A DNA stretch of 64,000 bases from an uncultured Chitinophaga sp. (lineage in GTDB: Bacteria > Bacteroidota > Bacteroidia > Bacteroidales > GCA-2748055), in NCBI GenBank assembly GCA_964404825.1, contig CAYOLQ010000002.1, positions 325-64,324 on the forward strand, given 5' to 3'. A program made the translations under genes and the position numbers. A model generated the notes under the pieces. It was given only the letters and a program-made list of their open reading frames with translations, was not told the DNA's origin and made no database searches. Positions 13,967 to 35,687 of the stretch are shown piece by piece; within the stretch, counting starts at the first letter, position 1, and the number at the start of each line of letters is the position of its first letter.

Positions 13967-13983
13967 CGCAAACAACGAGGATT

Positions 13984-18541: not shown

Positions 18542-18556
18542 TTCATACAATTAGAA

Positions 18557-19063: not shown

Positions 19064-19170
19064 ATTAATATCAATAACCAAAGGATTCAACTTTTTTAAT
19101 AAATAAGCCTTACAAACCTTCACTGTTAACTTGATTTTTAATATATTGCTTATCTAAAAAATAAATTCCT

Positions 19171-22100
19171 ATGCAAGGGGGAATTGCCCGGGCTCTTAAT
19201 ATTGAAAAAAATGAACAATCAAGTGTTTTCATTCTGATTATTCAATCTGTTTTTATTGGATTTTTTGCTGGTTCCTTTGATGTTGGCGCTCAATCTTTGT
19301 TTCTTAGTGTTTACGAAGCTTCTCTTATTCCAAAAGCATTTGTTTTATCGGGGGTCGTGGGGATAATTATTACTTCGGTTTATACCAGACTTCAGGCCCG
19401 GATGAAGTTTTCCGGTTTTGCACTTATAAACTATATTTTTATTGCATTAATAACCCTTTTGCTGAGACTGGGGTTTGAATTCACAGATGATAAACGTCTT
19501 GTTTTTGCCGTTTTTGTAATGATGGGTCCTCTGACAATCATCAGCTTTCTGGGTTTCTGGGGAACGGTTGGTCGATTATATACTCTCAGGCAGGGTAAAA
19601 GACTTTTTGGGTTGATTGATACCGGACAAATATTAGGCATCATTATTGTTTCCTTTGCCATACCTGTGCTGATTACTTTACATTTTAAAGTGCTGAATAC
19701 CCTCCTCGTAGGCTCGGTAAGTATAATTCTGGCTTTGCTTTTACAGATTATTATCACAAACCGTTTTAGTTTTCAAAAAGTTGAACAGAAATCCGAGATT
19801 AAGGACAATTTCTTAAGCCTTTTTAAAAATCATTACACCCTTCTGATGGCCTTGTTTATTGTGTTTTCAGTCGTTGCAGCCTTTTTTGTTCACTTTTCTT
19901 TTCTTACTGTACTTGAGAGCAACTATCCGGATCCTAATGCTCTTGCTTCATTTCTGGGAGCTTTCATGGGTACTCTGACTATTTTCACCATTCTGATTAA
20001 GACATTTGTGTACGGCAGAATTATGAAAACATATGGGCTGAAACTTGCTCTCATCATATCTCCTGTATTGCTCTGCCTGTTTACATTTATTGCCGCCATT
20101 ATAGGAAGCATTTATGGTTATACAATAGCATCAGCTAGTTTTACTTTCTTTTTCCTGCTTATTGTCCTCAGCAAACTTTTTGCTAAAAGTCTTAAAGACT
20201 CAATTGAAGTCCCCGCATCAAAAATATTATATCAGTCTCTCGATGCAGGTATCAGGTATAATGTGCAGGCAAGGATAGACGGTACTGTAAATGAACTGGC
20301 TGCTTTTTCTTCCGGATTACTGCTTGCCGGTCTTGGTTTGATTGCTTTTGTGAAAATCATACATTTCTCATGGTTTCTGCTTTTTATTCTCATTATATGG
20401 GCATATGTTGGAGCCAGGCTATATGCTGCGTATAAGGTGTCACTTGGGTCATCCCTTGAGAAATTTCAGAAACTTTCCATGGATGGACATTCCGAACTAT
20501 CTGTTACTGAAAAAATATTACCCGGAACAAGTGATCCTGCTAAAGTTTCTGCTGTTCTTGAATTCGCTCCCCAATCCTGGAATGGATATATATCAAAAAA
20601 CTTCAATAGCTTGTTCAAAGAGAATGATAAGATACGTTCAATGACCTTCTCGATCGTCGATGATTTGGATTTGAAAGAAAAAGGAGAACAACTTGAGAAA
20701 TACAGTAAGGATTTAACCGCCGCTCAAAGGTCCCGTTTGAAAGTAATGATGCAAAGGTTCAGAATTGATAGTAAAAAAGCGGGTGAAGAAGAGATAAGAG
20801 AATTATTAAAAAGCGATAATCCGGATGACAGGAAAAAAGGACTGATTATTATTACTGAGAAAAGTGACCCTAAATATTTTCCCAGAATAGTTCCCATGTT
20901 CCGCGATCCATCACCTTCCGTTAGAATTAGTGCAATCAGATCTGCGGGTATGTTGAATCGCAAGGACTTTGTGACCTATCTGATTGATATGCTTGAGGAC
21001 CCGGGATACTACTCCTATGCTTTTAATGCTTTGGCATCTATGAGCGATGCAATTCTGGAAAATCTTGAACATGGGTTTCATAAAACAGGAATTACAGACA
21101 AGGGCATGATAAGGATAACCCGCATTGTTGTATCCATTGGAACTCCCGAAGCGGCTACATACCTGTTCAGAAAGCTGGATCACTTTAACCGGAATGTTTT
21201 TTCATCCGCTGTCAAAGGGATTCAAAAAATCGGTATCACTCCGGATGAAAATGAAAAGTCAAAGATATTCTCTGCCCTTTACAAGATTTGCGGAATAAAT
21301 GCATGGAACCTTACAGCCAGGTATAGTCTCAGAGATTTTGAGGCAGGGGCTGAGCTGGCAATTGCCCTGGACGAAGAAATCTCAGAGAATTATGATCTGA
21401 TTTATTCGCTTCTGTCAATCGCATATGATCCATCTACAGTTTTTCACATTCGAAAAAACCTTGAAAGCGGAACTTCTGAAGGTATTGGTTTTGCTATTGA
21501 GCTTCTGGACCTTTTCGTGGATGAGCCTGTTAAGCCATTTCTCTTCCCCTTACTGGATGATTCGCCGGTTTCTGAAAAGGTTAGACTACTTCAGTCGGAA
21601 TACCCGGTTGAACCGATGAAGCCTGAGCAATTATTAACTTCTATTATTAACAGAGATTACAATCAGATAAATCCTTATACCCGGCTTAGTGCCATCCATG
21701 CACTTAACCGTATTGAAGGATATTTACCCGGTAAAGACCTTGTTGCACAAATGTTCAATTCCGATCCGCTTCTAAGAGAGGAAGCCTCAGCCATGGTATA
21801 CAAATTGGATACTAAATTATACTCGGAAGTTCTGAGACGCTTACCGGTGAGCTATAAACTATCAGTAGAAGAATTTTTACGATCAGCCGGAACCGAAGAA
21901 GAAAGCGGACATTTCAGAAAATTCAGGTACCTCAGGGCAATGGAAATATTCAGTAATTTTAGAAACCATCAATTACTGGATATTGCAAGGAAATTTGAAT
22001 TGCATAAATTTGAACAAAATGAAGATCTGCCTGCAAGGAATTTTTTCAAGCCCAACCAGATACTTCTTTTGGTTGAAGGAAGATTACACATAGAAACAGG

Positions 22101-22305
22101 GAATGGTGATCTGAATTTCGTTAGTGGAGATTTACTTGATTCATCACAGTTTATTAATCCCGACAATCGATTTGCAATTATTAAGGAAGGAACCCGTGTA
22201 CGAATTATGTTACTTGAGAAATCCTGCTTGCAGGAATTAATTTTTGACGATGAAAACTCATTTTTCCCGCTTGCTGAATTGCTGTCAGGCGTGAAAAATA
22301 CTTAA
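19171..22305 (+). CDS. 12-TM transporter-like domain (MFS or nucleotide-transporter-like) fused to HEAT repeats and a C-terminal cNMP-binding-like domain
   Basis: 1044 aa. Residues 1-430 form about 12 hydrophobic helices. Residues 540-900 carry HEAT/PBS-lyase-like repeats (DNPDDRKKGL..., FRDPSPSVRISAIRSAG). The last ~130 aa have a beta-barrel pattern resembling a cyclic-nucleotide-binding fold. Confidence 0.6.
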   Translation: MQGGIARALNIEKNEQSSVFILIIQSVFIGFFAGSFDVGAQSLFLSVYEASLIPKAFVLSGVVGIIITSVYTRLQARMKFSGFALINYIFIALITLLLRLGFEFTDDKRLVFAVFVMMGPLTIISFLGFWGTVGRLYTLRQGKRLFGLIDTGQILGIIIVSFAIPVLITLHFKVLNTLLVGSVSIILALLLQIIITNRFSFQKVEQKSEIKDNFLSLFKNHYTLLMALFIVFSVVAAFFVHFSFLTVLESNYPDPNALASFLGAFMGTLTIFTILIKTFVYGRIMKTYGLKLALIISPVLLCLFTFIAAIIGSIYGYTIASASFTFFFLLIVLSKLFAKSLKDSIEVPASKILYQSLDAGIRYNVQARIDGTVNELAAFSSGLLLAGLGLIAFVKIIHFSWFLLFILIIWAYVGARLYAAYKVSLGSSLEKFQKLSMDGHSELSVTEKILPGTSDPAKVSAVLEFAPQSWNGYISKNFNSLFKENDKIRSMTFSIVDDLDLKEKGEQLEKYSKDLTAAQRSRLKVMMQRFRIDSKKAGEEEIRELLKSDNPDDRKKGLIIITEKSDPKYFPRIVPMFRDPSPSVRISAIRSAGMLNRKDFVTYLIDMLEDPGYYSYAFNALASMSDAILENLEHGFHKTGITDKGMIRITRIVVSIGTPEAATYLFRKLDHFNRNVFSSAVKGIQKIGITPDENEKSKIFSALYKICGINAWNLTARYSLRDFEAGAELAIALDEEISENYDLIYSLLSIAYDPSTVFHIRKNLESGTSEGIGFAIELLDLFVDEPVKPFLFPLLDDSPVSEKVRLLQSEYPVEPMKPEQLLTSIINRDYNQINPYTRLSAIHALNRIEGYLPGKDLVAQMFNSDPLLREEASAMVYKLDTKLYSEVLRRLPVSYKLSVEEFLRSAGTEEESGHFRKFRYLRAMEIFSNFRNHQLLDIARKFELHKFEQNEDLPARNFFKPNQILLLVEGRLHIETGNGDLNFVSGDLLDSSQFINPDNRFAIIKEGTRVRIMLLEKSCLQELIFDDENSFFPLAELLSGVKNT

Positions 22306-22326
22306 TATAACTGTCAATTTGTTTTA

Positions 22327-24372
22327 ATGGATAAGCGCACAACAATTTTCAAACAACTAATCTTCAATGTAGTCCTTCCGGCTATATTGGGGCTTTTGGT
22401 ACTCGGGATTTTAAACTATACGCATACCAAAAGTATCCTTCTGGATTCTAATAAAACCAAAAATCAGATACTTACTGATGAAATAAAACTCATTCTTGAA
22501 ATGAGAGATATGGCTCTGGATATTCTCGAGGAGAGTCTTGATGCAAAAATGAAAGCCTACAGTGAAAATCTGATTAATAATTACTTGGAGAAAACTGACG
22601 GAATTCATAGTGTTGATCTGGACCAGATACGAACTAAACTTGGGATGAACCCTGACTTTGAAGATATTTACATAATCAATAAAATGGGAATTGTCGTTAA
22701 TACAACATTCGAAAACGACAGAAATCTTAACCTTTTTAGTTTTGGTGCAGAACATAAAACTCTTTTGGAGACAGTTTTTTCCGGTGGCGTTTTTGTGAGC
22801 GAGCGCTTTGGCGTGGAGAGTCAGACCAAACGGTTACGAAAATTCACCTATCAACCCAGCCTGGACGGTAAATATATTATCGAACTGGGTATTTATTCCT
22901 CTACTGCCGATACTATAATTCAATCTGTAAATAAGCGTATCAACGATCTTTCCACAAAGGTGCAGAGCATTGTTTCAGTGGATCTATTCATTGGACTGGA
23001 TGCTCCATTTTCTTTAAATAAGTCGGCAAGCATTGAAGATGAGCACCTGGGTCTGTTTAAAAACGTTCTCACCACCGGAAAATCATATGAATTCACTGAA
23101 GAGAAAGACGGAAAGCTCTACCATTATGAGTTCATTTACATGAATCGTAAAAACACCCATCTTTACAAGGAATCAGTTATAAGGATTGTTTCAGATCGTT
23201 CGGACGACAGGGCTTTGCTAAGGAAAGAATTAATGAAGTTCTTTATAATTTTTGGAATCATTATACTGGTTGTTGTTATTCTTATATACAGGAAAACGAA
23301 AGTTATTACAGATCCTGTCAAAAACCTTCTTGAAAAGGTCATCCGGATTAGTGACGGACATATGAATGAGAGGGCTGATGTGGTTGGAAATAACGAAATA
23401 GCCTCATTATCCGAACAGTTCAACAGGATGATTGAACAATTGGAAAGTTATTATAATGAATTGGAGGAAAAGGTAAGAGAGCGTACAGCTGAGATCATGG
23501 CTCAGAAAGAAGAAATCGAAGCTCAGAGAGACTCCATTCAGGAACAGAGAAATATACTTTCCGATATCAACCGATCCCTGCAAAAAGCCTATCTTGAAAT
23601 CGAAGAGCAAAAAAAGCATATCGAAGATAGTATTCATTATGCACGAAGAATTCAGAACGCAATTCTCCCACCCGACGAATTTGTGTCCACCCTGCTTCCT
23701 GATTCATTCATTCTTTATAAACCTAAAGACATTGTGAGCGGAGACTTTTACTGGATGGCTCAGAAGGATGGACAGGCACTGGTAGCTGCGGTAGACTGCA
23801 CAGGCCATGGTGTTCCGGGGGCGTTTATGTCAATCGTTGGGAATAATCAGCTTAACTTTGCTGTAAATGTGAAAGGAAGTCTTCGTCCTGATGAAATTCT
23901 GAATGCTCTTAACGAGGGAGTTACGAAATCTCTCCGTCAGACCAGGCTTAGCTCCTCTGTAAAGGATGGAATGGATATCTCTCTTATAAGTATTGACTTT
24001 AAAGATTTAAAGCTTAACTATGCCGGTGGGTATAATCCTTTGTTCCTTATCCGTGATAATGAATTAATTACTGTAAAAGCTGATAAGTTTCCCATCGGAG
24101 GTTACATGGGAGAAAAACTGAGGGATTTTACCAATAATGAAATGGATATTAAAAAGGGCGATGTTTTATATCTTTTCTCCGATGGATATTCGGATCAATT
24201 CGGGGGATCGGATGATTCAAAGTTCCTTATAAGAAGATTTCGTGAACTCCTCTTAAAAATACATAATGAACCTATGAATGAGCAAAAGGAAATCCTTAAC
24301 CAGATACATGATGACTGGAGAGGAAATTCTGTTCAGATCGATGATATTCTGGTAATTGGAATTCGCATCTGA
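22327..24372 (+). CDS. membrane sensor with extracytoplasmic domain, HAMP, coiled coil and PP2C/SpoIIE-family phosphatase
   Basis: 681 aa. TM1 (residues ~12-32), a ~270-aa periplasmic segment, TM2 (FFIIFGIIILVVVILIY), HAMP-like linker and coiled coil, then PP2C motifs (SGDFYW, DCTGHGVPGA, FSDGYSDQFGG, DDILVIGIRI). Confidence 0.8.
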   Translation: MDKRTTIFKQLIFNVVLPAILGLLVLGILNYTHTKSILLDSNKTKNQILTDEIKLILEMRDMALDILEESLDAKMKAYSENLINNYLEKTDGIHSVDLDQIRTKLGMNPDFEDIYIINKMGIVVNTTFENDRNLNLFSFGAEHKTLLETVFSGGVFVSERFGVESQTKRLRKFTYQPSLDGKYIIELGIYSSTADTIIQSVNKRINDLSTKVQSIVSVDLFIGLDAPFSLNKSASIEDEHLGLFKNVLTTGKSYEFTEEKDGKLYHYEFIYMNRKNTHLYKESVIRIVSDRSDDRALLRKELMKFFIIFGIIILVVVILIYRKTKVITDPVKNLLEKVIRISDGHMNERADVVGNNEIASLSEQFNRMIEQLESYYNELEEKVRERTAEIMAQKEEIEAQRDSIQEQRNILSDINRSLQKAYLEIEEQKKHIEDSIHYARRIQNAILPPDEFVSTLLPDSFILYKPKDIVSGDFYWMAQKDGQALVAAVDCTGHGVPGAFMSIVGNNQLNFAVNVKGSLRPDEILNALNEGVTKSLRQTRLSSSVKDGMDISLISIDFKDLKLNYAGGYNPLFLIRDNELITVKADKFPIGGYMGEKLRDFTNNEMDIKKGDVLYLFSDGYSDQFGGSDDSKFLIRRFRELLLKIHNEPMNEQKEILNQIHDDWRGNSVQIDDILVIGIRI

Positions 24373-24403
24373 AAATCAATTTTAAGTTAAAAATCAAGCT
24401 ATT

Positions 24404-27400
24404 ATGACCGGTTCCAGCCAGACGATAATTCAGAACATTAATCCCTTTCCCGGGTTACGACCCTTTACCAGCGAAGAAGCACATCTTTTCTTTGGCAGAG
24501 AAGGGCAGGTAGATGAGATTATCGGCAATCTGACGAAAAACCGGTTTATTGCAGTAGTAGGTGCATCCGGAAGTGGTAAATCTTCACTGATATATTGCGG
24601 TGTAATTCCTGCTCTCATTAATTCTGTTAAGGGGTCAACTGCTAAGGATTGGCTAATAATTAATACCCGCCCGGGTAATTCTCCTCTGAACAGTTTACTT
24701 AATGACATTTCCGAGAGTTCAAATACGAAGATCGAAAGTATAAATCCAACCGAATTATTTTCTTCCGAAAAGGGAGTTCTTAACCTGATTGTAAAAGCTG
24801 CCGGTAATAAGAAAAATATTCTTCTCATGGTCGACCAGTTTGAAGAAATTTTTCGGTTCAGTAAAATGGGAGATCCGTCCGGCAGTAAGGAAAATTCAGA
24901 TTTATATGTCAGTTTTATCGTTAATGCCGTAAAACAAACTTCGGTTCCGGTTTATGTTGTAATCACCATGCGATCCGATTTTATTGGCGAATGTTCCAGA
25001 TTTCAGGATTTTACCGCTCTTATAAACCAGAGTAATTATCTGCTTCCCAGAATGACAACAAATGATTTCCGGAAAGTAATTCAGGGTCCGGTGAAAGTAG
25101 CCGGAGCTGAAATTGACCCGGTTCTTGAAGATAAACTACTGTCAGATCTCGGAGATAACCCCGACCAGTTACCCGTATTGCAGCATGTACTTATGCGTAC
25201 CTGGGATTACTGGAAATTACACAACGATATTACAAAGCCGCTTTCTGTATCAGATTATGAGGCAGTGGGCCGAATTGAAAAGGCACTTTCGGAGCATGCC
25301 AATGAGGCATATGATGAATTAAATGAAAGAGAGAAAATTATTTGTGAGAGTATCTTTCGGACTCTTACCGAAAAGGGAGGTGATAACAGAGGCGTTCGTC
25401 GTCCTACAAAGATTAGCCAATTGGCAGCAATTGCCTTGGCCGATACTGAAGAAGTAACCCGGATTATTGAAATTTTCAGAGCTCCCGGCCGTTCTTTTCT
25501 TGTGCCGGGATCCAATATTAAACTGAGCAAAGATTCGGTTATTGATATCTCCCATGAATCCTTTATGAGAATATGGGAAAGACTGAGAGCCTGGGTTGAC
25601 GAAGAGGCCAACGCCGTTCAGATGTACAAAAGATTAGCAGAATCTGCAGCACTTTTCCAGGCCGGAAGAACCAGCTTATGGAGGCCTCCGGATCTGCAAC
25701 TCGCGCTTACCTGGAGAGATAAAACCAACCCTAGTTTAACCTGGGCAGAACGTCATAATCCGGCATTCGAAAGAACAATGGTTTTTCTGGAAACCAGCGA
25801 AAATGAATATAGTAAAGAAGAAGAGAATAAACTTCGTTTGCAGAAGAGGCAATTACGCAGAACCCGAATTTTCGCCCTTGTGCTTGGAGGTGCTGCAATT
25901 ATTTCTATCGCATTGGTGGTTTGGACTCAGGAGTTGCGTGTAAGAGCTGAAGAAGAATTCGAGCGTGCAGAAGAACAAAGAAGTATTGCTGAAGACAGGA
26001 CTGCCGAAGCCAATAACCAGAGGCTTTTGGCAGAAAAAGCAGCTACCGAAGCTCAGAATCAAAGAAATATTGCGGAAGAATCTTCCAGAATAGCTGAGGA
26101 ACGCAGAGTTGAAGCTGAAGCAAATGCCAGAGAAGCAAGGAGACAGGAAGCAATAGCACAAAACAACCTTTCAGAAGCAAACAGGCAGAGAAAAATTGCA
26201 CTCGATAATGAACAGGAAGCAAATAATCAGAAAGTGCAGGCGGAAAACGCAAGGGTTGAGGCATTTCAGCGAAGGATGCTATCCACAGCCAAATCTATGG
26301 CTGTAAAATCTATCCAGATTAGTAACGATGCGAACCTGAAATCGCTGATGGCATATCAGGCTTTTCTGTTTAATGAAAAATACAACGGAATAGAACATGA
26401 TGTGGATATTTATTCAAGCCTCTATCAATCATTAATAACGCTTCGGGGCAAGGATTTCAACATATTATTGGGACATGATAATGCCGTCCGTTCTGCGGTT
26501 TTTATTCCCGGAACCTCCACCCTTTTAAGTGCCGGCAGTGACGGAAAAATCCTCAAAAGGGATATATACGATGTTGATAAAAAATGGGAAGTAATCGCTG
26601 AGGGAATTGGTGTCATCGAGAAAATACAGACTTCATTCAATGGTAAGTATCTGGCTGTAGCAACAAACCGGGGTGGTATGAATCTTTTCAATCTGGAAAC
26701 CGGGAATAGTAATTTTAAAGTTCTCACAGGGGAAGATGAGAATATTCGAACCATGGTAATAGGTCCGGATAATAAAACAATGTTTACAGCCGGTCTGAAA
26801 CCTGTTATCGAATATTGGGATCTGGAGTCAGGTTCTCATTCCAGACTCATAGAAACAAACACACGTGTAAACACTCTTGCACTTTCACCAGATGGCGGCA
26901 TCCTTGCAGGCGGAACCAAAGATGGCCGGTTAATTATCTGGAGAGTTAAAGGAACCACAATTTCCCAGGAAATTTATAAGGATGATAACCAAAGGTCTAT
27001 TCACTCAATTGCCTTCAGCCCCGATGGCTCTTACCTTGCTTGCGGAAATATTGATGGCGAAGTTCTTCTTTTTTCTGCTGATTCATTCAGTCTGATTACA
27101 CTTTTAACCGGACATTCAGCCAGAGTTACGGATTTGGGATTCAGTCCCGGAAGTAAAACATTAGCGTCATCCTCATATGATGGAAAAGTATTGTTCTGGG
27201 AACTTTCAAATCTGACTAATCCACCAATTGTTATGGATGATAACTCAGGTTTTGTTTTTTCCCTTGCATTTAGTCCGGATGGTAAAAATCTGCTAAGCTC
27301 AAGTGCAGAAGAACCCCGGCTCATAATCCGGCCGGCAATGGCAAGCATGATGGCAATGCAGGTTTGCGGTCTTGTAAGCAGAAACTTTACAACAGATGAA

Positions 27401-27493
27401 TGGAAAACATACGTAGGAACAGATATTCCGTATGAAAAATCCTGTCCTGTTGAAGCTAAATTAGAAATTGGAATAAGAAAAGATGAAAAGTAA
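24404..27493 (+). CDS. STAND-class P-loop NTPase with a single TM helix, repetitive coiled coil and C-terminal WD40 repeats
   Basis: 1029 aa. N-terminal NPFPGLRPFTSEEAHLFFGRE, Walker A GASGSGKSS and Walker B LLMVDQFEE. TM helix IFALVLGGAAIISIALVVW is preceded by an RR-rich stretch. It is followed by ~110 aa of EA/QR-rich coiled coil and then about 7 WD40-like units (GHDNAVRS, GSDGKI, GTKDGRLIIW, GNIDGEVLLF, SSYDGKVLFW). Confidence 0.8.
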   Translation: MTGSSQTIIQNINPFPGLRPFTSEEAHLFFGREGQVDEIIGNLTKNRFIAVVGASGSGKSSLIYCGVIPALINSVKGSTAKDWLIINTRPGNSPLNSLLNDISESSNTKIESINPTELFSSEKGVLNLIVKAAGNKKNILLMVDQFEEIFRFSKMGDPSGSKENSDLYVSFIVNAVKQTSVPVYVVITMRSDFIGECSRFQDFTALINQSNYLLPRMTTNDFRKVIQGPVKVAGAEIDPVLEDKLLSDLGDNPDQLPVLQHVLMRTWDYWKLHNDITKPLSVSDYEAVGRIEKALSEHANEAYDELNEREKIICESIFRTLTEKGGDNRGVRRPTKISQLAAIALADTEEVTRIIEIFRAPGRSFLVPGSNIKLSKDSVIDISHESFMRIWERLRAWVDEEANAVQMYKRLAESAALFQAGRTSLWRPPDLQLALTWRDKTNPSLTWAERHNPAFERTMVFLETSENEYSKEEENKLRLQKRQLRRTRIFALVLGGAAIISIALVVWTQELRVRAEEEFERAEEQRSIAEDRTAEANNQRLLAEKAATEAQNQRNIAEESSRIAEERRVEAEANAREARRQEAIAQNNLSEANRQRKIALDNEQEANNQKVQAENARVEAFQRRMLSTAKSMAVKSIQISNDANLKSLMAYQAFLFNEKYNGIEHDVDIYSSLYQSLITLRGKDFNILLGHDNAVRSAVFIPGTSTLLSAGSDGKILKRDIYDVDKKWEVIAEGIGVIEKIQTSFNGKYLAVATNRGGMNLFNLETGNSNFKVLTGEDENIRTMVIGPDNKTMFTAGLKPVIEYWDLESGSHSRLIETNTRVNTLALSPDGGILAGGTKDGRLIIWRVKGTTISQEIYKDDNQRSIHSIAFSPDGSYLACGNIDGEVLLFSADSFSLITLLTGHSARVTDLGFSPGSKTLASSSYDGKVLFWELSNLTNPPIVMDDNSGFVFSLAFSPDGKNLLSSSAEEPRLIIRPAMASMMAMQVCGLVSRNFTTDEWKTYVGTDIPYEKSCPVEAKLEIGIRKDEK

Positions 27494-28499
27494 ACTATAC
27501 ATAATAATCGGTTTCCTTTTCTCATTAGTGGGATCAGGCTACCTGAATGCGCAGGAAAATTGCGCTTTGAACCTTAAGCGGGCTCAGGAACTTTTTAATT
27601 CAGGGCAGATTGAAACAATTCCCTCACTTATTGAACCCTGCATTTTATCTGGTTTTACGCGGGAAGAAAAAGTTCTTGCATACAAATTGCTGATAAACGC
27701 ATATGTTTTCGATGACAACCTTGAAAATGCCGAAGTCATAATGAATAATTTCCTTAAAAAATACCCTGAGTATGAAATTATCAGCACCGACCCTTCTGAG
27801 TTTGTTAACCTGATGCAGCAATTTGATAACAAGCCAAGATTTTCAATCGGAATTATTGCAGGGGGTACATATTCCGTAATAAGGGTAATAGAACCTGTAA
27901 ATACAAGCCCTTTGCCTGATAATTATGGTTATTATAATACTTCTGGCGTAGGATATCATGCAGGATTTGCCCTTATTAAAAATCTGAATTCAAATATTGA
28001 ACTCTGTCTGGAAGCTGATTTTAAAAACACAGTATTTGATCACTACCTTGATCCGGACGGAAATACCTCCAATTCGTATTACGAATCACAGCAACTTATT
28101 AATTTACCATTTTCAGCAACCTATACCATAGGTAAAGGGAAGTATAAACCCTATGCCCGTTTAGGTTTTAATACAGGTTTTTTGATTAGTTCAGGAGCAG
28201 ATTTAGTAACAGTGCCCGGTACTGAGAGTCCCAGAATTTCCAATATGGATAACCGCGAAATACTTAATTTCTGGGGAGTTATTGGTGGAGGTGTAAAACT
28301 GAAAGTTCCTAAAGCATACATCTTTCTGGATGTAAGATACAATCTTGGCTTAAATAATCAGGTAAATAATAACGGACGGAGAAATACTCAGTCAGATGAA
28401 CTAATGCTGTATCAGACCAGAGATGATGATTTTTATCACGATGATTTGAATTTCAGCATAGGAATCGTGAGGACGATATACCATCCCAAAAAAAAGTAG
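27483..28499 (+). CDS. secreted TPR-like domain fused to a PorT-like outer-membrane beta-barrel
   Basis: 338 aa. Signal peptide ending LNAQ, a ~90-aa helical TPR-like region, then alternating beta-strand sequence to the C-terminus. The start overlaps the STAND gene by 11 nt. Confidence 0.55.
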   Translation: MKSKLYIIIGFLFSLVGSGYLNAQENCALNLKRAQELFNSGQIETIPSLIEPCILSGFTREEKVLAYKLLINAYVFDDNLENAEVIMNNFLKKYPEYEIISTDPSEFVNLMQQFDNKPRFSIGIIAGGTYSVIRVIEPVNTSPLPDNYGYYNTSGVGYHAGFALIKNLNSNIELCLEADFKNTVFDHYLDPDGNTSNSYYESQQLINLPFSATYTIGKGKYKPYARLGFNTGFLISSGADLVTVPGTESPRISNMDNREILNFWGVIGGGVKLKVPKAYIFLDVRYNLGLNNQVNNNGRRNTQSDELMLYQTRDDDFYHDDLNFSIGIVRTIYHPKKK

Positions 28500-28523
28500 T
28501 TAAATTTTTTTAACCGGTAATTA

Positions 28524-29663
28524 ATGAAAAATCTTATCTGCATACTAACTCTTCTGATTATTCTGATGGCCTGTCAAAAGGAGGTGTCAGATTTGCAGAC
28601 ACATTATTTTGTAAAATTTTATGGTGATGCCCTGGATGACACCGGGGTTGATGTTGAACTTGCCCCTGATGGCGGATATGTTATTGCCGGAACAACAGTT
28701 CGCCCAACTGGAGATACAGACATTATGCTGATAATCGTGAATAATTATGGTATTCAGAAAACCCAGACTGTTTATTACGGGGAAGAAGGAGATGAAATTT
28801 GTACAGGTTTATTGTTGGTTGATGATGGATATGTTATTACCGGATCGGTCACAAACGGGGGTGAAGAGATTGTATTGCTTGTTAAAATCGGAACAGATGG
28901 TGTTTTAGACTGGACTTCTTCCTGGCAGAATCCCGGTAGGGGAACAGACATAGTATTGATAAACAATAATATTGTTGTTTCGGGGTATCTGCTAAATGCA
29001 TTTGGAGTAAAACGCCCGATGATTCTAACATCAGATGCTCTTGGAAATAAGATCGATTTGTATTCTCCTACCGATAATCCGGGTGATTATTTTACTGCTG
29101 TTCAAACCAGAAACAATCAGATCTTCGGATTTGGAACCAGTATAAATACTGCCATAAATAATAATATGTTTATTGCAGGACCTGCCATTGAACCCAGTTT
29201 TTTTAATCTTTCCGGAAATGAAGCATCTGCAAGAATTATTAAGGGAAGTACGGGTGGTTTTTTCATTATCGGCACTACTGATCCTGTTAGCTCTGGAACC
29301 AACCAGATAATAGTTAAGAAAGTAAATGATGACTTCTCGGAAGACTTAACTTTTAATGCAAATCCTATCGGGAATAATGCTGATTTTCGCGGAGTTGATA
29401 TACAGGAAATGGAGGATGGAAGGATAGCAGTTCTCGGAGATAAAACTTTTTCAAAAGACACAGATATTGTATTATATCTTTTAAACCCTGACGGTTCAAT
29501 CCTTTCTTCAAAAATTTATGGAAGAACCGGTAATCAGTCAGCATCCGCAGTTAAATCAACACCAGACGGTGGTCTTATCATTCTGGGTAGCAATCAGCAG
29601 GAAAAAACTAACAGTATGATTACCCTGATAAAGACCGATAAGGATGGTAATATTTGGGAATAG
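28524..29663 (+). CDS. lipoprotein with repeated beta-propeller-like blades
   Basis: 379 aa. Lipobox LMAC. Recurrent DGGY(V/L)I.G...D..L(I/V)K.D..G units (at least 5). Confidence 0.5.
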   Translation: MKNLICILTLLIILMACQKEVSDLQTHYFVKFYGDALDDTGVDVELAPDGGYVIAGTTVRPTGDTDIMLIIVNNYGIQKTQTVYYGEEGDEICTGLLLVDDGYVITGSVTNGGEEIVLLVKIGTDGVLDWTSSWQNPGRGTDIVLINNNIVVSGYLLNAFGVKRPMILTSDALGNKIDLYSPTDNPGDYFTAVQTRNNQIFGFGTSINTAINNNMFIAGPAIEPSFFNLSGNEASARIIKGSTGGFFIIGTTDPVSSGTNQIIVKKVNDDFSEDLTFNANPIGNNADFRGVDIQEMEDGRIAVLGDKTFSKDTDIVLYLLNPDGSILSSKIYGRTGNQSASAVKSTPDGGLIILGSNQQEKTNSMITLIKTDKDGNIWE

Positions 29664-29669
29664 GAAAAA

Positions 29670-32600
29670 ATGAAAGGAAACTTTACCGTAATGAAAGCAC
29701 TTAAGAAACTAGTAATATGCGGCCTGATTTTATCTGTTCCATTGTTTTCATATGGAGCAGGGAGTGTCAGTATTTCCGGAACTATTACTACCAGTAATTC
29801 GGAACAGAATATTATTGATGGCGGACAAACTATAATCCTCAGTCTTACTGATGCTACATGGGCGGCATCCATCGAGGATAGTTTATCAAGCTGGCAATCG
29901 GCATTTTCTTCATCAGGTAGCTGGAGCGAAATAAGCTCTGCACTTTCCACTTCAGATTTTTCAAGGGTAAACGATACAGCTTTTGTAATTATCCTTCCGG
30001 CTTCTTCTTTATATGCGATTTGGGCAAATGAAGTAGTAACCCTTACCATTCCTAACTCACTGCTTGCAACCGGTAGTGCTCTCAATACCCCAACATTTAC
30101 CATTATAAATCAATCTCCAATTATCAGTATTAATGCCGCTTCAGGCATTCTGACTAATAACAATGAATCGTTTATAATTGCAGGTTTACAGACAATCATT
30201 ATAGATGTAGCAAGAGATAATTGGGCTACAAGTTTGGGCGCTAATAATGCAGTGACTACTGCTTTTATAAATGCTATTGATGGCGATCAAAGCTGGTCAG
30301 CTGTTGATGGTCCCTTATCTTATGCTAATATCAGTCGCACTTCTGAAACCCGGGTAACTATTACCCTGCCAGCCGCTGCTACATATGTAATAACTGAAAA
30401 TGAAACAGTTACATTCTCATTTCCGGGTAGCTCATACAGAAACAGTTCAGTTAAGGCTGTCAGCGATCCTACAGTAACAATATATGATTTAAATCCGGTT
30501 GTAACTTTAAGCGGTACTGCTTTGCCAACTCTTACGGAATCAAATATCCGGGCAGGTGGATATACTCTGATTTATGATGTGATCTACGATACATGGGCTA
30601 CAAACCTGGATGAAAATAATGCAGCAACCACGGAATTTCTTGAAGGATTAACAGGAAATCTGGACTGGCTCACGGTTACTGATGTGCTTATTTTTTCAAA
30701 TCTTACAAGGAATTCTGCCAGCAGAGTAACATTGTTGCTTCCGGCAGTACCAAGCTATGCCATAAGCTCAAATGAAACTGTCTCTGCAAGTATACCTGCC
30801 TCTGCTTTTAACGGCATATCCGGTGCATCTGCCGGAACAGCATTTACCGTTTCTAACCAACAGGCAGGCACTAATGTTACATGGTCAACCGGTACTTCAA
30901 CTATTGCTGAGGCTCAGGTTCGTTCCGGAGTTCCTCCACTTACTCTGACTCTTGATTTGACCAGCAGCGACAGCTGGATTACGAGTATACCAACCCTTAA
31001 AACTAATTTTATTGCTGCACTCAGTAATGGAGCAGGAAGCGAGTGGGATACAAAGGTTCTTCCAAATATTTCAGTAAACAGATCGTCAGCTACAAGATTG
31101 GTTATATCGTTTACTGCAGCAGCTAGTTTTGATATAACTAGCCTTCGGACAATAACTTACTCAATTTCCGATAATTCACTTATAGCTTCGAGCGGGGCAT
31201 CAGTGACTCCGGCTACCTCAGGTTTCTCAATTACTCCTTTACCAGCAAGCGTAAGCATTAGTCCCGGCAGCATAAGCGAAGCCGGTCTGAACGGAGGAAC
31301 AATCGATCTGACTATTTCTGAAGATGTATTTACTGATCCGGCATCTGTAGCTGTAAATTATTTTTCCATCAGCGCACCGGCGGGTGCAAGTATAAGCACC
31401 GTTACGAACAGAACTTCAACCGGAGTTCGTCTGACTTTGGCCTACGAGGGGGATATTGATACAAATGGTAGTATTCAGATTACCATAGTAAACGGTCTCG
31501 CCGGAGGGGGCACACTAATTTCCAACTCAACAACCGTCGTGGCAGTCATTGAACCGGTAATAACTGGTGTATCAATTCCTAATCAAACATATAAAATAAG
31601 TGATGCGGTTCCGGTAACCATAACTGTACAGGATGACGGAGGCCAGATTTTTACCCTGACATCAGGTTCTGTTGGAGGTCGCTCCTTATCCGGATTTTCA
31701 CGCATAAACTCTACAACCTACTCTGCCAGTTTTACAGTTCTTTCCGGAACAACAGATTACCCAGCATTATCCGATATTCCGGTTTCAGTTCAGTTGCAGA
31801 TATCCGGTCGTCCGGGAAATCTGTTTAATACACCGATAAGTCAGATTGCTGACCTGATTGATGCCAATCCCCCTGTAATAAATTCGTATCAGGCTCTAGG
31901 AGGCGTTCATAAAGCTGGTGATATAATTCAGCTGATTGTTAGTGCCGATCAGGCGGGTTACACAATAGATAATACACAGACCAGTATTAATAGCATTCCG
32001 ATTACTAACCCTTCTTTCGCATTTATCAGTGAAGCTGGAGGAACGTATTATTTAAGCTACAAGATTTCGGTAAATGATAACGATGTACTTACTCCGGTAG
32101 CACTTAGCGGACAAATTGTACTTAAAGATCCTGCAGGAAACAGCAGTCTGGTCAAAAATGTTACTGCTGTATCAGGCGCTTTTTCAATTGATGCACATTC
32201 TCCGATTATCTCCGGAGTTACAGCTCCGGATAGTATTTATATAAGCGGGGAAACACTTATTCTTACTATTAATAGCGATGGTGCGGGTTACAGTTTATCC
32301 CCCGAAACCTTTATAAATGGTATATCCTTCAGTTCGGGCAGGTTTTCATTAAATGGTACCGGACCGGTATATACCCTGAATTATCCTGTACTGGCAACTG
32401 ATGCCGAAGTTAGTGCCGGAAATCTTCCGGTGAATATCGTTTTAAAGGATGTTGCCGGAAACAAATCAAACCCTTTAACATCCTTTTCGAATACTGTTTC
32501 TGTCTTTACCACAAAACCCACTGCTTTTATCAGTGGAAATGCTTCAATTTGTAAGGGTGATTCAGCAATTCTTTATGTAAGTTTAACGGGAAAAAGCAAA

Positions 32601-35600
32601 TGGAATATTGTTGTGTCAAACGGATCTTCTACCAGTAATTACAATAACATAAGCAGTTCACCTTTCAGTTTTAAGATTGGCCCTGGCGTAAATACAAATT
32701 ATACAGTACAGTCAATTACCGATAAAAACGGTCTTACCAATACAGGAACAGGCACTGCAAGTATTATTGTTAATATTGGAACACCGGTAAATATTACTCC
32801 TGTTGGCAGTGCTTACAATCTGCTTGCATCACCTGTTCAATTATCAGCAGTTCCTTCAGGAGGATTATTCAGTGGACCGGGAGTTGTAAGCTCAGTTAAT
32901 AAATTCTATCCCGATATTGCCGGAGTTCCCAACTCTCCCCACACTATTATTTACACCTATACAAATGGATTTGGATGTAAAAGCTATGACAGCATATCTA
33001 TTGGTGTGGTTGAAGCCAGAGGGGGAATTGAACTGGATGATTTATACTGTTACAACGATGAACCTTTTCTGGCAGCAGCAATTACTGATAGTACAGAAAT
33101 TATTGGACGGTTTGAACTTTTCTTTAAAGAGGCCATTGTACAAGAGGGTAACGGAATTCATGATAACGGAAACAATACAGCATTAATAACGCCATCTTTA
33201 TTAAACCCGGGCGAGTATCTTCTCAGATATAAGTATTTTCTAAAAGATACTCTTACTCTTGAAGAGAACTTCATAATAGAATTTATTGAGCAACCTAAAT
33301 TTCTCGGATTCCCCGATCCTGCCACTATCTGTCAGAACGAAGTCCCGCTAAACCTTCAGGGTGACGCCCGGAGAGGGGAGTTCACAGGTTTAGGAATAAC
33401 AGGAAACAGCGCGAGTGGATTTAAATTTGATCCGTCCGTTACCGGGCATGGAAGATATACAATTACGTATACTGACTCAACAGTCAACAGATGCAAAAAT
33501 CAGATTAGCAAAGATATTACCGTATACTTTGTGCCGGATATGGGATTTACTGCAAGTGATAGTTGTGTTTTTTCATTCAATCCCGGAAGCGAAATATTTT
33601 TTAATAACACTACTGTTGAAAAGGATTCAATCAAATCCTGGTTCTGGAATTTCGATGATGTTAATTCGGGTTCCAGTAACTTTAGCACACTTCAGTCTCC
33701 ATCCCACTTTTTCAATAAGTCGGGGAAATATTCAATATCACTTATTGATACCACAACCAATGGCTGTCCTGATCGTCACGAAATCACATTTGATTTTGGC
33801 GATAAACCAACCGGTGGTTTTGAAGTCGTTAACAAATGCTTCACCGTTGGAACCCTGACAGAGTTTAATAGTTTAACCAGTTCTAATGATGGAATTAAAG
33901 ATTATTACTGGAAAATTCATTTGGAGGACGGTATTCAGGTTGATACGCTAATATCATCTGAGACATATAAATTCCAGTTTTTACAGGAAGGGATATACCT
34001 TATTGAACATATTGTAACCTCGAATACCAATTGTACTCTGGCATTATCCGATTCCATAATTCTGAAACCTACAATTGTGGTAAAAAAAGGGATCCCCCAT
34101 AATGAGCTGGATCTTTTTGAAGGAGGCTGGAGTAGTAGTAACTCAATGGATATGGCATATCCGGGGTTAAGCTGGAGATGGGGAATCCCCGATTTCATAA
34201 GTCTGGCCGGAGGTACGGAAAAAGCATGGTATACTCAAAGAAGCAATTCTATGCTGCCGGAGCTTTCTTCTCTGATAAGTTCATGTTTCAACATTAGTGA
34301 ACTCGACAGACCAATGATTAAAATGGATATCTTCCGGAACTTTGGCAGCACTCAGGATGCTGCTATTCTTGAAACTTCAACCGATAACGGAGAAAACTGG
34401 AATGCGTTGGGTAACCCTGGTGATGGCATTAACTGGTACAGTGATTATCAGACTACAAACTTTGCTTTCAATAAAAACTATGGCTGGGCTAATTCAAGCG
34501 GTTCAGTACCCGATACATCATGGATTGAATCGCGTCATGTTCTTGATCCGGTAATTGGTTCATCAAATCTTCAGTTCCGGCTTGTCTTTGGTGCAGAGGA
34601 AAGCACTGTTCAGGATTATGAGGGATTTGCATTTCGTAATATTACTATTGGTGAAAGGAACAGATTCAGTGTTCTCGAACACTTTGTAAATACTACCTCG
34701 GTTAATCCTGTTAAGGATAAGGTAAAATCTGCTAATATCAAGGTAAATGCACTCTATAAAAAGGATTTTTTGTATAAAGATTTCGTAAAACTTGAGTACC
34801 ATACACGCTTCCCTTCAGTCAATGATCCTATTAACCTTTTTAACCGCGACGTACCCGGAGCAAGAGCGTATTATTATGGTGTCACAACAGTGCCTTATTC
34901 CTTACTGGACGGGGGAGACAGAACCGGCAGGCGCTTTGACTTTTCCGATACAAAATTTGAACCCAGGGAAATCGACATAAACCTTAGATCTCTGGTTGAT
35001 CCCGCCTTAAAAATAAGCGTTATTGCGCAGGAAAACGGAGATGATCTTAATGTTGGCGTTAAGCTTACAGCTCTGGAGAACCTGCCGGCAGAAGAAAGGG
35101 TGTTATATGTTGTACTTTATGAAACTATGGTCTCCGGTATTGTAGCTGAAAATGGCGAATTGCAGTTTCAGAATGTTGTGCGTAATATGATTCCTGATGC
35201 AGGGGGAACAACAATATATCAGGCGTTTTCTGCTACACCTCAAGATACTACGCAACTTGAATATAATTTTTCAGCCAGCTTAAATAATCTGGATAAGGAT
35301 TATATCCGTGTAGCAGTTTATTTCCAGAACGATTTTTCCGGCGAGATTTATCAGGCAGCTTTATCTGACTATAGCCGGTCGATTGGGACAAAAGTTAATC
35401 CTGAAATAAAGTTTGAGAACGGTTTATCCGTTTATCCGAACCCCGCTGCTGATTTTGTTGAAGTAAATATTTCCGGTGCTGTTAGCAGACCTTCACAACT
35501 GGAATTTTTTGACCAGCTTGGACGAAAGGTTCATAGTGAAACTATTCCATCCTATGAAAACAGAATAATAATAAATACCTCAGGTTTTACCAGGGGAATT

Positions 35601-35669
35601 TATCATCTGAGAATTACAAGAGATGGTATTCAGAATTCGGAAATTGTAAAGCTGGTTATTATTAACTGA
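29670..35669 (+). CDS. giant T9SS-sorted cell-surface, adhesin-like protein
   Basis: 1999 aa. Signal peptide, five ~120-aa tandem repeats, three Ig-like ~105-aa modules, Cys-containing beta-sandwich modules and a PKD-like module (WFWNFDD). These are followed by a lectin/MAM-like region and a terminal type A sorting domain (LSVYPNPAADFVEVNI...GIYHLRI...KLVIIN). Confidence 0.8.
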   Translation: MKGNFTVMKALKKLVICGLILSVPLFSYGAGSVSISGTITTSNSEQNIIDGGQTIILSLTDATWAASIEDSLSSWQSAFSSSGSWSEISSALSTSDFSRVNDTAFVIILPASSLYAIWANEVVTLTIPNSLLATGSALNTPTFTIINQSPIISINAASGILTNNNESFIIAGLQTIIIDVARDNWATSLGANNAVTTAFINAIDGDQSWSAVDGPLSYANISRTSETRVTITLPAAATYVITENETVTFSFPGSSYRNSSVKAVSDPTVTIYDLNPVVTLSGTALPTLTESNIRAGGYTLIYDVIYDTWATNLDENNAATTEFLEGLTGNLDWLTVTDVLIFSNLTRNSASRVTLLLPAVPSYAISSNETVSASIPASAFNGISGASAGTAFTVSNQQAGTNVTWSTGTSTIAEAQVRSGVPPLTLTLDLTSSDSWITSIPTLKTNFIAALSNGAGSEWDTKVLPNISVNRSSATRLVISFTAAASFDITSLRTITYSISDNSLIASSGASVTPATSGFSITPLPASVSISPGSISEAGLNGGTIDLTISEDVFTDPASVAVNYFSISAPAGASISTVTNRTSTGVRLTLAYEGDIDTNGSIQITIVNGLAGGGTLISNSTTVVAVIEPVITGVSIPNQTYKISDAVPVTITVQDDGGQIFTLTSGSVGGRSLSGFSRINSTTYSASFTVLSGTTDYPALSDIPVSVQLQISGRPGNLFNTPISQIADLIDANPPVINSYQALGGVHKAGDIIQLIVSADQAGYTIDNTQTSINSIPITNPSFAFISEAGGTYYLSYKISVNDNDVLTPVALSGQIVLKDPAGNSSLVKNVTAVSGAFSIDAHSPIISGVTAPDSIYISGETLILTINSDGAGYSLSPETFINGISFSSGRFSLNGTGPVYTLNYPVLATDAEVSAGNLPVNIVLKDVAGNKSNPLTSFSNTVSVFTTKPTAFISGNASICKGDSAILYVSLTGKSKWNIVVSNGSSTSNYNNISSSPFSFKIGPGVNTNYTVQSITDKNGLTNTGTGTASIIVNIGTPVNITPVGSAYNLLASPVQLSAVPSGGLFSGPGVVSSVNKFYPDIAGVPNSPHTIIYTYTNGFGCKSYDSISIGVVEARGGIELDDLYCYNDEPFLAAAITDSTEIIGRFELFFKEAIVQEGNGIHDNGNNTALITPSLLNPGEYLLRYKYFLKDTLTLEENFIIEFIEQPKFLGFPDPATICQNEVPLNLQGDARRGEFTGLGITGNSASGFKFDPSVTGHGRYTITYTDSTVNRCKNQISKDITVYFVPDMGFTASDSCVFSFNPGSEIFFNNTTVEKDSIKSWFWNFDDVNSGSSNFSTLQSPSHFFNKSGKYSISLIDTTTNGCPDRHEITFDFGDKPTGGFEVVNKCFTVGTLTEFNSLTSSNDGIKDYYWKIHLEDGIQVDTLISSETYKFQFLQEGIYLIEHIVTSNTNCTLALSDSIILKPTIVVKKGIPHNELDLFEGGWSSSNSMDMAYPGLSWRWGIPDFISLAGGTEKAWYTQRSNSMLPELSSLISSCFNISELDRPMIKMDIFRNFGSTQDAAILETSTDNGENWNALGNPGDGINWYSDYQTTNFAFNKNYGWANSSGSVPDTSWIESRHVLDPVIGSSNLQFRLVFGAEESTVQDYEGFAFRNITIGERNRFSVLEHFVNTTSVNPVKDKVKSANIKVNALYKKDFLYKDFVKLEYHTRFPSVNDPINLFNRDVPGARAYYYGVTTVPYSLLDGGDRTGRRFDFSDTKFEPREIDINLRSLVDPALKISVIAQENGDDLNVGVKLTALENLPAEERVLYVVLYETMVSGIVAENGELQFQNVVRNMIPDAGGTTIYQAFSATPQDTTQLEYNFSASLNNLDKDYIRVAVYFQNDFSGEIYQAALSDYSRSIGTKVNPEIKFENGLSVYPNPAADFVEVNISGAVSRPSQLEFFDQLGRKVHSETIPSYENRIIINTSGFTRGIYHLRITRDGIQNSEIVKLVIIN

Positions 35670-35687
35670 CAGCAAGATTTCAAATAC

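Follow-up and report, generated by a model that had tools for sequence, protein, structure and literature searches.

A compact operon of six genes, g1 to g6, lies within the 64,000-nucleotide (nt) stretch of Bacteroidota DNA analyzed here (contig CAYOLQ010000002.1, positions 325 to 64,324; hereafter the window), and we propose that it encodes a conserved Bacteroidota system for signaling across the cell envelope, with a transmembrane STAND (NLR-like) ATPase, the product of g3, at its center. We give this reading a probability of about one half. The operon itself is real and is conserved across Bacteroidota. A preliminary description of this DNA had seen in it an envelope-spanning module running from the cytoplasm to the cell surface; as a matter of structure—co-inheritance and predicted topology—that picture stands, its functional side being a proposal. 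The six same-strand genes of that description, with gaps of 21, 31, -11, 24, and 6 nt, are reproduced exactly by an open reading frame (ORF) listing of the window, the negative value at the third junction being an 11-nt overlap in which g4 starts inside the end of g3:

g1, 19171-22305, plus strand: ORF of 1044 amino acids (aa)
g2, 22327-24372, plus strand: ORF of 681 aa
g3, 24404-27493, plus strand: ORF of 1029 aa
g4, 27483-28499, plus strand: ORF of 338 aa
g5, 28524-29663, plus strand: ORF of 379 aa
g6, 29670-35669, plus strand: ORF of 1999 aa

This arrangement recurs in other genomes. One genome per species was scanned with an alignment, A1, of g3 and 11 diverse homologs; at least 596 species-level stretches encode a g3 relative, of which the best 80 were analyzed with 10-kb flanks and their neighboring genes mapped by tblastn and blastp. 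The order g1-(g2)-(X)-g3-g4-g5-giant is found in 78 of these 80 loci, where the giant is a large protein secreted through the type IX system (T9SS), like that encoded by g6, and where g2 and a further gene, X, are optional. The loci derive from Bacteroidales (including Tenuifilaceae, Perlabentimonas gracilis, and metagenome-assembled genomes (MAGs) labeled Rikenellaceae), from Cytophagales (including Cyclobacteriaceae, Fulvivirga, Reichenbachiella, Chryseosolibacter, Ohtaekwangia, and Sporocytophaga), and from a few MAGs labeled Flavobacteriales or Vicingaceae. Among loci with enough flank, g4 is present in 69 of 73, g5 or a positional equivalent (an ORF of 340-470 aa) in 54 of 57, a plus-strand ORF of at least 1300 aa for the giant protein downstream in 37 of 39, and g1 upstream of g3 in 51 of 54. 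Median intergenic gaps are 3-43 nt across loci, that between g3 and g4 being 8.5 nt (72 loci). In a subset of Bacteroidales, even the position between parC-aroK and fdp-psd is kept at about 70% identity in ParC and about 41-44% in g3. Chance adjacency is therefore excluded, as order and tight spacing recur in 78 of 80 related loci; the neighborhood search that the preliminary description had called for finds genes co-conserved in at least two orders rather than genes that happen to be adjacent in one strain.

The unit that is conserved differs from the six genes first described. The core is g3-g4-g5-giant plus g1, and these five are co-inherited; g2 was found solely in Bacteroidales-type loci among those recovered, and gene X, which encodes a protein of 425-505 aa directly upstream of g3 in most loci, was missing from the original set and is absent from the window. 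Where at least 6.9 kb of upstream sequence was available (54 loci), the genes preceding g3 are g1 and X in 24 cases, g1, g2, and X in 15, and g1 and g2—the type seen in the window—in 8, while four loci have only g1 and three have none of these genes. Some loci depart further from the common plan. One (L066) has g3-g4-g5-giant straight after aroK and lacks g1, g2, and X, while two MAGs of Cyclobacteriaceae and Raineyaceae (L054, L055) carry lone g3-like paralogs of 1068-1093 aa, at about 9930-13250, with no g1, X, g4, g5, or giant neighbor.

At the center of the operon, g3 is predicted to place its two ends on opposite sides of the inner membrane, joined by a long helical rod. Its parts, in order, are:

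nSTAND1 NTPase domain, g3 residues 14-421, nt 24443-25666, plus strand: PF20703, predicted cytoplasmic
single transmembrane helix, g3 residues 488-511, nt 25865-25936, plus strand: hydropathy 2.61, predicted with N-terminus inside and C-terminus outside
heptad stalk, g3 residues 512-631, nt 25937-26296, plus strand: alanine at every seventh residue, 17 heptads
seven-bladed WD40 propeller, g3 residues 685-977, nt 26456-27334, plus strand: modeled with a predicted local distance difference test (pLDDT) score of about 85-94, predicted periplasmic

The match of the first domain to PF20703 scores 319.4 bits against a cut-off of 27.1 (E = 6e-95). The Walker A (GASGSGKSS) and Walker B (LLMVDQFEE) motifs are intact, and G53-S61 and D144-E148 are invariant among the 12 diverse homologs of alignment A1. 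Judged by its sequence, then, g3 is a bona fide STAND NTPase of the nSTAND1 type; a Pfam search finds no effector domain fused to it. In 77 homologs, the 15 residues flanking the transmembrane helix carry a median net charge of +6 on the N-terminal side and 0 on the C-terminal side, and the second hydrophobic clusters seen in six g3 homologs are weak and lie inside globular domains. Because of this charge bias and the single strong transmembrane segment, the NTPase is predicted to be cytoplasmic and everything beyond residue ~511 periplasmic. The preliminary description had likewise placed the WD40 domain outside the inner membrane, and its prediction agrees with both features.

In sequence, the stalk looks like a ruler. 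Alanine occupies the heptad position in 93% of alignment cells, and among the 77 homologs the stalk measures 105, 119, 126, 133, or 147 aa, with one outlier of 139; stalk length therefore varies in whole heptads. The 119-aa length of the window's copy is common to 51 of the 77. As an α-helix at 0.15 nm per residue, 119 residues would reach ~18 nm, and an AlphaFold2 model shows one uninterrupted helix over g3 residues 455-638. A length of ~18 nm is also the scale of the Gram-negative periplasm, and because of this match the WD40 propeller would sit just beneath the outer membrane. A TolA-like force transducer was considered for the stalk, which has a similar composition, and was rejected: there is no motor of the TolQR/ExbBD type, and a STAND NTPase forms the N-terminus. 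A paper on periplasmic force transducers makes no mention of the g3 family (PMC12204202).

For the WD40 domain, the top Foldseek matches are the prokaryotic WD40 structure 5yzv (TM-score 0.90, target-normalized) and full-length Apaf-1 (3sfz). It is followed by a pair of cysteines, 988 and 1014, each kept in 87-88% of the 77 homologs, which may form a periplasmic disulfide. The segment they bound (nt 27365-27445, residues 988-1014) has the motif C...RN.T..EW..Y.G.D.PY.K.C; similar C-terminal tails occur on cytoplasmic bacterial WD40-STAND proteins. The family is large: its members fall into more than 150 clusters at 50% identity that can be aligned over the whole of the STAND domain, transmembrane helix, and stalk, and most are 1000-1060 aa long. 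Among phages, matches to the nSTAND1 domain are rare and weak (three records, at most 28% identity).

The product of g4 is the candidate outer-membrane counterpart of g3. It has a signal peptide and a β-barrel of the OMP_b-brl_2 family (PF13568, scoring 42.9 bits where the cut-off is 27), and divides into two parts:

g4 N-terminal domain, residues ~25-125, nt 27555-27857, plus strand: two conserved cysteines
g4 outer-membrane β-barrel, residues ~115-338, plus strand: PF13568

The barrel of the TPR/β-barrel outer-membrane protein first described is thus upheld, but no TPR match was found; the region in question is instead a conserved domain of ~100 aa with two cysteines. This N-terminal domain, predicted to be periplasmic, is the best-conserved part of g4 across 69 orthologs, with C27 and C52 each kept in at least 85%. 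No PorP/SprF, PorQ, or PorT model of Pfam or NCBIfam matched g4, and these identities were rejected.

A variant locus on a plasmid of Runella rosea (NZ_CP030852.1, locus 10522-29292) ties the g4 domain to g3 from another direction. There, a full-length g3 homolog with the transmembrane helix and alanine heptads is followed immediately by a TonB-dependent receptor. Before its plug, this receptor has ~120 N-terminal residues that share homology with the corresponding domain of g4 (E = 1e-6) and retain both cysteines. In such receptors that act as transducers, this is the position of the signaling domain. The link between g3 and g4 is supported because the g4 N-terminal domain is both the most conserved part of that protein and the part that recurs, on a different kind of barrel, beside the Runella g3 homolog. 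The surroundings are those of a signaling locus: genes for a STAS protein, an anti-sigma-antagonist, and an RsbW-like kinase precede the g3 homolog, and a GNAT gene, a g1-like NTT-HEAT gene, two histidine kinase genes, and a SpoIIE phosphatase gene follow the receptor. No giant T9SS gene was found in the 29-kb stretch examined. In Persicobacter psychrovividus, a g1-like/g3-like pair on pPP2 is flanked on either side by an arm of a cluster for a contractile injection system (sheath, baseplate, PAAR, tape measure; locus 1-29380), and a triad of giant T9SS gene, g4-like gene, and gene for a 384-aa protein (locus 3789-14195) lies ~28 kb from the pair on the same replicon. Here, the parts co-occur even when unlinked.

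The next two genes extend the predicted assembly outward. The g5 product was first described as a lipoprotein with propeller-like repeats, and this agrees with its sequence: there is a lipobox, LMAC, with the cysteine at position 17 (kept in at least 85% of 50 orthologs), and the repeats are of the delta-60/DUF5122 kind, weak and below cut-off, with TIGR02608 at 38 bits. Its orthologs are ~400 aa long and are all annotated "hypothetical." The g6 product has a hydrophobic N-terminus that serves as signal peptide, a PKD domain, and, at its extreme C-terminus, a type-A T9SS C-terminal domain (CTD), as expected of the giant T9SS-sorted protein of 1999 aa first described. Its main regions are:

g6 variable N-terminal half, residues 1-~950, nt 29670-32519, plus strand: delimited by the conservation profile
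g6 conserved C-terminal half, residues ~950-1999, nt 32520-35666, plus strand: PKD/Ig, MAM-like β-sandwich, HBP35/Omp28-like thioredoxin-fold, and CTD modules
g6 CTD, residues 1921-1995 of 1999, nt 35430-35654, plus strand: PF18962, 41.4 bits against a cut-off of 27

All 22 complete giant orthologs end in a PNP-type CTD motif, and by these sequence features g6 is a type-A T9SS cargo. Conservation among relatives is confined to residues ~950-1999. The last 550 residues were modeled with AlphaFold2, at moderate quality only (pLDDT 66.6), because a word-indexed homolog search with the g6 C-terminus yielded only 12 proteins; in Foldseek, the top match of this model is Porphyromonas gingivalis HBP35 (5y1a; E = 2.5e-10), itself a T9SS cargo, followed by MAM domains. 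Homologs of g6 carry PF11551 Omp28 matches, and a PDB sequence search with g6 was uninformative.

Upstream of g3 lie the candidate outputs. The g1 product has 11 hydrophobic segments that place it among the nucleotide transporters of the TLC/NTT type (PF03219, 31.5 bits where the cut-off is 21; E = 2.4e-13 to the NTT structure 9j3n in the PDB), and these are followed by HEAT repeats (HEAT_2, PF13646, 41 bits against a cut-off of 27.7). The fusion of transporter, HEAT repeats, and cyclic-nucleotide-binding domain (cNBD) first described therefore holds for its NTT and HEAT parts, but the C-terminus of the window's g1 has no Pfam match, to a cNBD or otherwise, even at E <= 1. At the family level, the domain is clear: a profile of 25 orthologous g1 C-termini matches the cyclic-nucleotide-binding domains of cGMP-dependent protein kinase with E = 1e-30, and PF00027 is matched in 14 of the 25. 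The window's copy appears divergent, its phosphate-binding cassette being partly degenerate by eye. Nearly all domain assignments of the preliminary description were reproduced, this domain and the TPR assignment of g4 being the two that need qualifying.

The g2 product runs from a transmembrane helix through a periplasmic region of ~265 aa, a second transmembrane helix, a HAMP domain (PF00672), and a coiled coil to a PP2C/SpoIIE phosphatase domain (PF07228), the layout expected of the HAMP-PP2C phosphatase with a periplasmic sensor that had been proposed. Its catalytic aspartate motifs and periplasmic residues 100-200 are strongly conserved in 30 orthologs. The phosphatase domain matches PDB 6k4e (E = 1.3e-40), deposited as "Putative serine phosphatase" and which we take to be the phosphatase domain of SiaA. 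Membership of the SiaABCD system was rejected, as g2 scores 259 bits against the NCBIfam SiaA model NF038263, below the 700-bit equivalog cut-off, and the partner genes are missing: siaB, siaC, and siaD are found neither in the operon nor in the window, and the operon has no kinase, SiaC-like, or GGDEF gene. Pseudomonas aeruginosa SiaA and g2 have the same succession of transmembrane, periplasmic, transmembrane, HAMP, and PP2C parts; their periplasmic domains are unrelated. A weak terminator-like hairpin (22362-22392, plus strand; 13 pairs, only 4 of them G-C, and a weak T tail) lies 35 nt inside the start of g2, just past the end of g1. It could serve as an internal attenuator, with the count of such sites falling within chance expectation.

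For gene X, the further optional partner upstream, 16 of the 20 members searched match DUF4062 and 9 match TIR_2. DUF4062 domains have been characterized experimentally as TIR-like NADases in defense, and hold the effector position in human NWD1 and TEP1, which are DUF4062-NACHT-WD40 proteins (bioRxiv 10.64898/2026.05.01.722283). In X, column counts show a mixture of Glu and Asp at the putative catalytic position, followed by Gln, which leaves X a putative NADase; a PDB search with an X profile was uninformative.

Taken together, these features suggest how the system could operate. We infer that the WD40 head has its docking site in g4's N-terminal domain, perhaps with g5 taking part, and would thereby read the state of an outer-membrane and surface complex that holds or contacts g6. 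Load on g6, its loss, its cleavage, or its binding of a ligand could each provide the trigger. The resulting change would be relayed down the stalk to the STAND domain, which may switch from an ADP-bound monomer to an ATP-bound oligomer in the manner of Apaf-1 or MalT. That oligomer would then act on g1, a nucleotide transporter presumably regulated through its HEAT and cNBD parts, in nearly all lineages; on the PP2C phosphatase g2 in Bacteroidales; and on the TIR/DUF4062-like protein X in most other lineages, X having been lost in the window. In essence, the logic would be that of TonB-dependent cell-surface signaling, in which the FecA N-terminal domain addresses FecR, except that a STAND switch would stand where the anti-sigma factor does. 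A bolder formulation, which we hold tentatively and rate at somewhat less than an even chance, is that this is the first bacterial transmembrane NLR-like receptor system: an ancient, vertically inherited, outside-in "envelope apoptosome" of Bacteroidales and Cytophagales. An exported WD40 domain at a fixed distance below the outer membrane would monitor the complex of barrel, lipoprotein, and giant T9SS protein, with nucleotide transport, PP2C activity, and a TIR-like NADase as possible outputs.

The anatomy, the topology prediction, the co-inheritance, and the sharing of the g4 domain come from sequence or computation directly, and two further observations favor trans-envelope signaling: inheritance is vertical and housekeeping-like, all flanks in the window being housekeeping genes and the position being kept at deep divergence, and the Runella locus offers a signaling context of STAS, RsbW-like, histidine kinase, and SpoIIE genes. 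Several points weigh on the other side. The direction of the signal and its output are pure inference. The modeled stalk is that of a monomer, with pLDDT of 50-60 over the transmembrane helix and the first part of the stalk. The cNBD of the window's g1 is degenerate, and second-messenger control may not apply here; the operon holds no STAS or SiaC-like substrate for g2. STAND proteins with exported sensors have so far been predicted, those with predicted periplasmic lectin domains having been noted in passing (PMC10907252). Finally, nSTAND1 domains with TIR/DUF4062 partners are otherwise typical of conflict systems, so that the purpose could be defense rather than regulation. Surface sensing, guard-type defense, and control of adhesin display are thus all candidate purposes.

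Defense is the likeliest of the alternatives, although we consider it unlikely. The operon would then be a guard-type abortive-infection system directed at phages or competitors, with the giant surface protein and its outer-membrane partners as a tripwire; perturbation of the tripwire would act through the periplasmic WD40 domain to drive STAND oligomerization and then nucleotide depletion or death, by way of a TIR/DUF4062-like NADase in relatives, of nucleotide efflux through the NTT protein g1, or of both. The nSTAND1 family was defined in predicted conflict systems (PMC8195603), a TIR_2/DUF4062-like gene stands among those just upstream of g3 in 39 of the 54 loci whose upstream sequence is long enough, and DUF4062 domains are experimentally established NADases in defense, as cited above. 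A plasmid of Caballeronia sp. SBC2 (pSBC2-4, 5143-12543), mobilizable and from a host outside Bacteroidota, encodes a DUF4231 protein, a TIR-domain protein, and an nSTAND1-WD40 protein of 1190 aa beside an IS3 transposase; the TIR and nSTAND1-WD40 genes look like a plain, conflict-type, two-gene relative of the X-g3 pair. Placement of the Persicobacter g1-g3 pair inside an injection-system cluster fits the same picture, as does the rapid evolution of g5 and the outer half of g6, which retain about 25-30% identity where g2 retains ~55%. Against this, the sensors themselves are conserved rather than diversifying, both the WD40 domain of g3 (by alignment) and the periplasmic domain of g2, and the operon is fixed among housekeeping genes across deep divergence instead of in a variable island. 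The candidate effector fares no better: X is lost in the window's clade and in Fulvivirga with the rest of the operon intact, and its putative catalytic position is the mixed one described above. Searches of PADLOC-DB v2 returned no real match for the six proteins or for X, with g2 and g3 giving only P-loop and coiled-coil noise (E >= 6e-4) and g1, g4, g5, and g6 nothing. A known defense system, those of the Avs/bNACHT STAND type included, was rejected on these grounds, there being no PADLOC model, no effector on g3, no X in the window, and housekeeping flanks.

The same envelope-spanning anatomy could also work in reverse. In an inside-out, Lap-like scheme, which we regard as quite improbable, the cytoplasmic state—a nucleotide or second messenger at the STAND domain and cNBD, and phosphorylation set by g2—would be conveyed along the stalk so that the WD40 domain, acting on g4 and g5, retains, exposes, or releases g6. 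The cytoplasmic sensory domains that this requires are there (the cNBD at family level, and HAMP), g6 looks like an adhesin with its Ig/PKD, MAM-like, and HBP35-like domains and CTD, and a giant T9SS protein accompanies the operon in 37 of 39 loci. However, STAND NTPases are ligand-triggered switches in which the repeat domain is the input, as in Apaf-1 and MalT (here by resemblance of fold only); no protease or release factor is encoded; and the pairing in Runella of a g3 homolog with a TonB-dependent receptor, with no giant cargo in 29 kb, suits sensing better than retention. A more modest proposal divides the operon in two, with g4 and g5 as cargo-specific export or anchoring accessories of g6, in the way of SprF or PorP, and g1-g3 as a separate upstream regulatory unit. 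Giant T9SS cargoes often sit beside dedicated outer-membrane partners, as with sprB and sprF in Flavobacterium johnsoniae, and in Persicobacter the triad and the g1-g3 pair occupy different loci. We think this division very unlikely: the g3 stop overlaps the g4 start in the window, with the two genes almost abutting elsewhere (the median of 8.5 nt in 72 loci) and linked in 69 of 73; g4 matches no PorP/SprF, PorQ, or PorT model and the g6 CTD is of type A, not type B; and the N-terminal domain of g4 accompanies a g3 homolog even on a barrel of another type.

The setting of the operon in the window is consistently that of housekeeping genes, and its boundaries are those first described. Upstream lies the shikimate kinase gene aroK (PF01202, 18557-19063), preceded by the topoisomerase IV genes parE and parC; downstream lies a convergent flavodiiron-type gene (35688-36911, minus strand), and beyond it psd, cdsA, ftsH, and Lon. 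Genes of the LysRS type and for RecJ are found elsewhere in the window. One non-coding feature deserves listing; as no other non-coding gap at the cluster's 5' end is of any size, it becomes the candidate promoter region:

aroK-g1 intergenic region, 19064-19170, plus strand: 107 nt, candidate promoter region

No match to the strict Bacteroidota -33/-7 consensus was found in it. In line with the preliminary description, which saw no hairpin terminators between the genes, a terminator scan of 18400-37400 places no terminator-like site in any of the five junctions. Over that interval, the scans gave 17 terminator-like sites against a shuffle expectation of 14.9, and 60 promoter-like sites of the sigma-70 type against 53.7; both are at chance level, and transcription units are therefore unreadable from sequence. 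Across the operon, an Rfam scan found no riboswitch or leader and a tandem-repeat scan found no repeats, the heptads of the g3 stalk having no counterpart at the DNA level. No T9SS core genes (PorK/L/M/N, SprA, and the like) are among the window genes scanned. Between psd and the flavodiiron gene, within a 103-aa ORF at 36964-37275 that has no Pfam match, sits the strongest terminator-like hairpin of the scanned stretch (37009-37036, minus strand; 12 pairs and a T-rich tail), which suggests that the ftsH-cdsA-psd unit stops at this point and that the ORF is possibly spurious. Two further minus-strand ORFs of some size, 4158-6230 (690 aa) and 51393-52601 (402 aa), match no Pfam family at E <= 1e-5, although their surroundings are otherwise housekeeping genes.

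To our knowledge, STAND and NLR proteins from every domain of life are considered to be sensors that work in the cytosol. A STAND family that is conserved and has a periplasmic sensor tied to outer-membrane and surface proteins would add a new trans-envelope signaling architecture, and would suggest how the T9SS-dominated Bacteroidota report surface events to the cytoplasm. The operon also gives the widespread but uncharacterized NTT-HEAT-cNBD transporters their first genomic context and testable partners, and links the TIR/DUF4062-STAND-WD40 module, in a split form of the human NWD1/TEP1 type, to envelope surveillance. Cultured hosts exist in Fulvivirga kasyanovii, Chryseosolibacter histidini, Perlabentimonas gracilis, Persicobacter, and Runella, and the variation of the stalk in whole heptads presents a ready-made molecular-ruler experiment.

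Comparison with known systems shows where the operon is familiar and where it departs. Like the nSTAND1 conflict systems described by Kaur, Burroughs, Iyer and Aravind (PMC8195603), g3 combines an nSTAND1 domain with a C-terminal WD40 domain, but a transmembrane helix and heptad-ruler stalk are inserted between the two, making the sensor, by prediction, periplasmic. Unlike those systems, too, g3 is obligatorily linked to an outer-membrane barrel, a lipoprotein, a giant T9SS cargo, and an NTT-HEAT-cNBD protein, is inherited vertically among housekeeping genes, and has no fused effector and, in the window, no X. In overall fold, g3 resembles Apaf-1 (by Foldseek), and the X-g3 pair of its relatives corresponds to a split form of the DUF4062-NOD-WD40 architecture, known from proteins of the Apaf-1, NWD1, and TEP1 type, in which DUF4062 or CARD, NOD, and WD40 parts form one chain. 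The NTT-HEAT-cNBD fusions are reported to be a monophyletic family, widespread in bacteria and uncharacterized (Major, Embley and Williams 2017, PMC5381601), whose architecture g1 shares in its NTT and HEAT parts, its cNBD being clear at family level and degenerate in the window's copy; that paper does not link them to a STAND ATPase or to genes of the envelope, whereas in Bacteroidota g1 is nearly always just upstream of g3 (51 of 54 loci).

The closest analogy in signaling logic is FecA/FecR/FecI. Both systems have an outer-membrane barrel with an extra N-terminal domain (in g4, predicted to be periplasmic), and next to it an inner-membrane protein, FecR or g3, whose periplasmic domain is large and whose output is cytoplasmic (for g3, by prediction). 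However, g4 is a small PF13568 barrel and not a TonB-dependent receptor—a Pfam search shows no plug, a barrel of ~220 aa, and no match to the signaling-domain model of such receptors, a true example of which occurs only in the Runella variant—and g3 has a STAND ATPase instead of an anti-sigma factor. Membership in FecAIR-type cell-surface signaling was rejected for want of a plug and of sigma and anti-sigma genes; no extracytoplasmic-function sigma, anti-sigma, or TonB/ExbBD genes are found in the operon. An SprB/SprF pair was likewise rejected, as no PorP/SprF model matches g4 and the g6 CTD is of type A. At the level of concept, the operon recalls two further systems: Lap (LapD/LapG/LapA), an envelope-spanning link between a cytoplasmic signaling state and a surface protein, and PorA-PorXY, in which the T9SS cargo PorA acts as a signaling element. 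Neither has a homologous component here, the operon being without a c-di-GMP receptor, a LapG protease, a type I secretion system, or a PorX/PorY pair. A full-text search of the literature found no description of the operon, in agreement with the original statement that no system of this composition had been described. STAND/NLR-like signaling is known; its envelope-spanning form is new as far as we have found, and there is a real chance that the operon deserves the name of a new kind of system.

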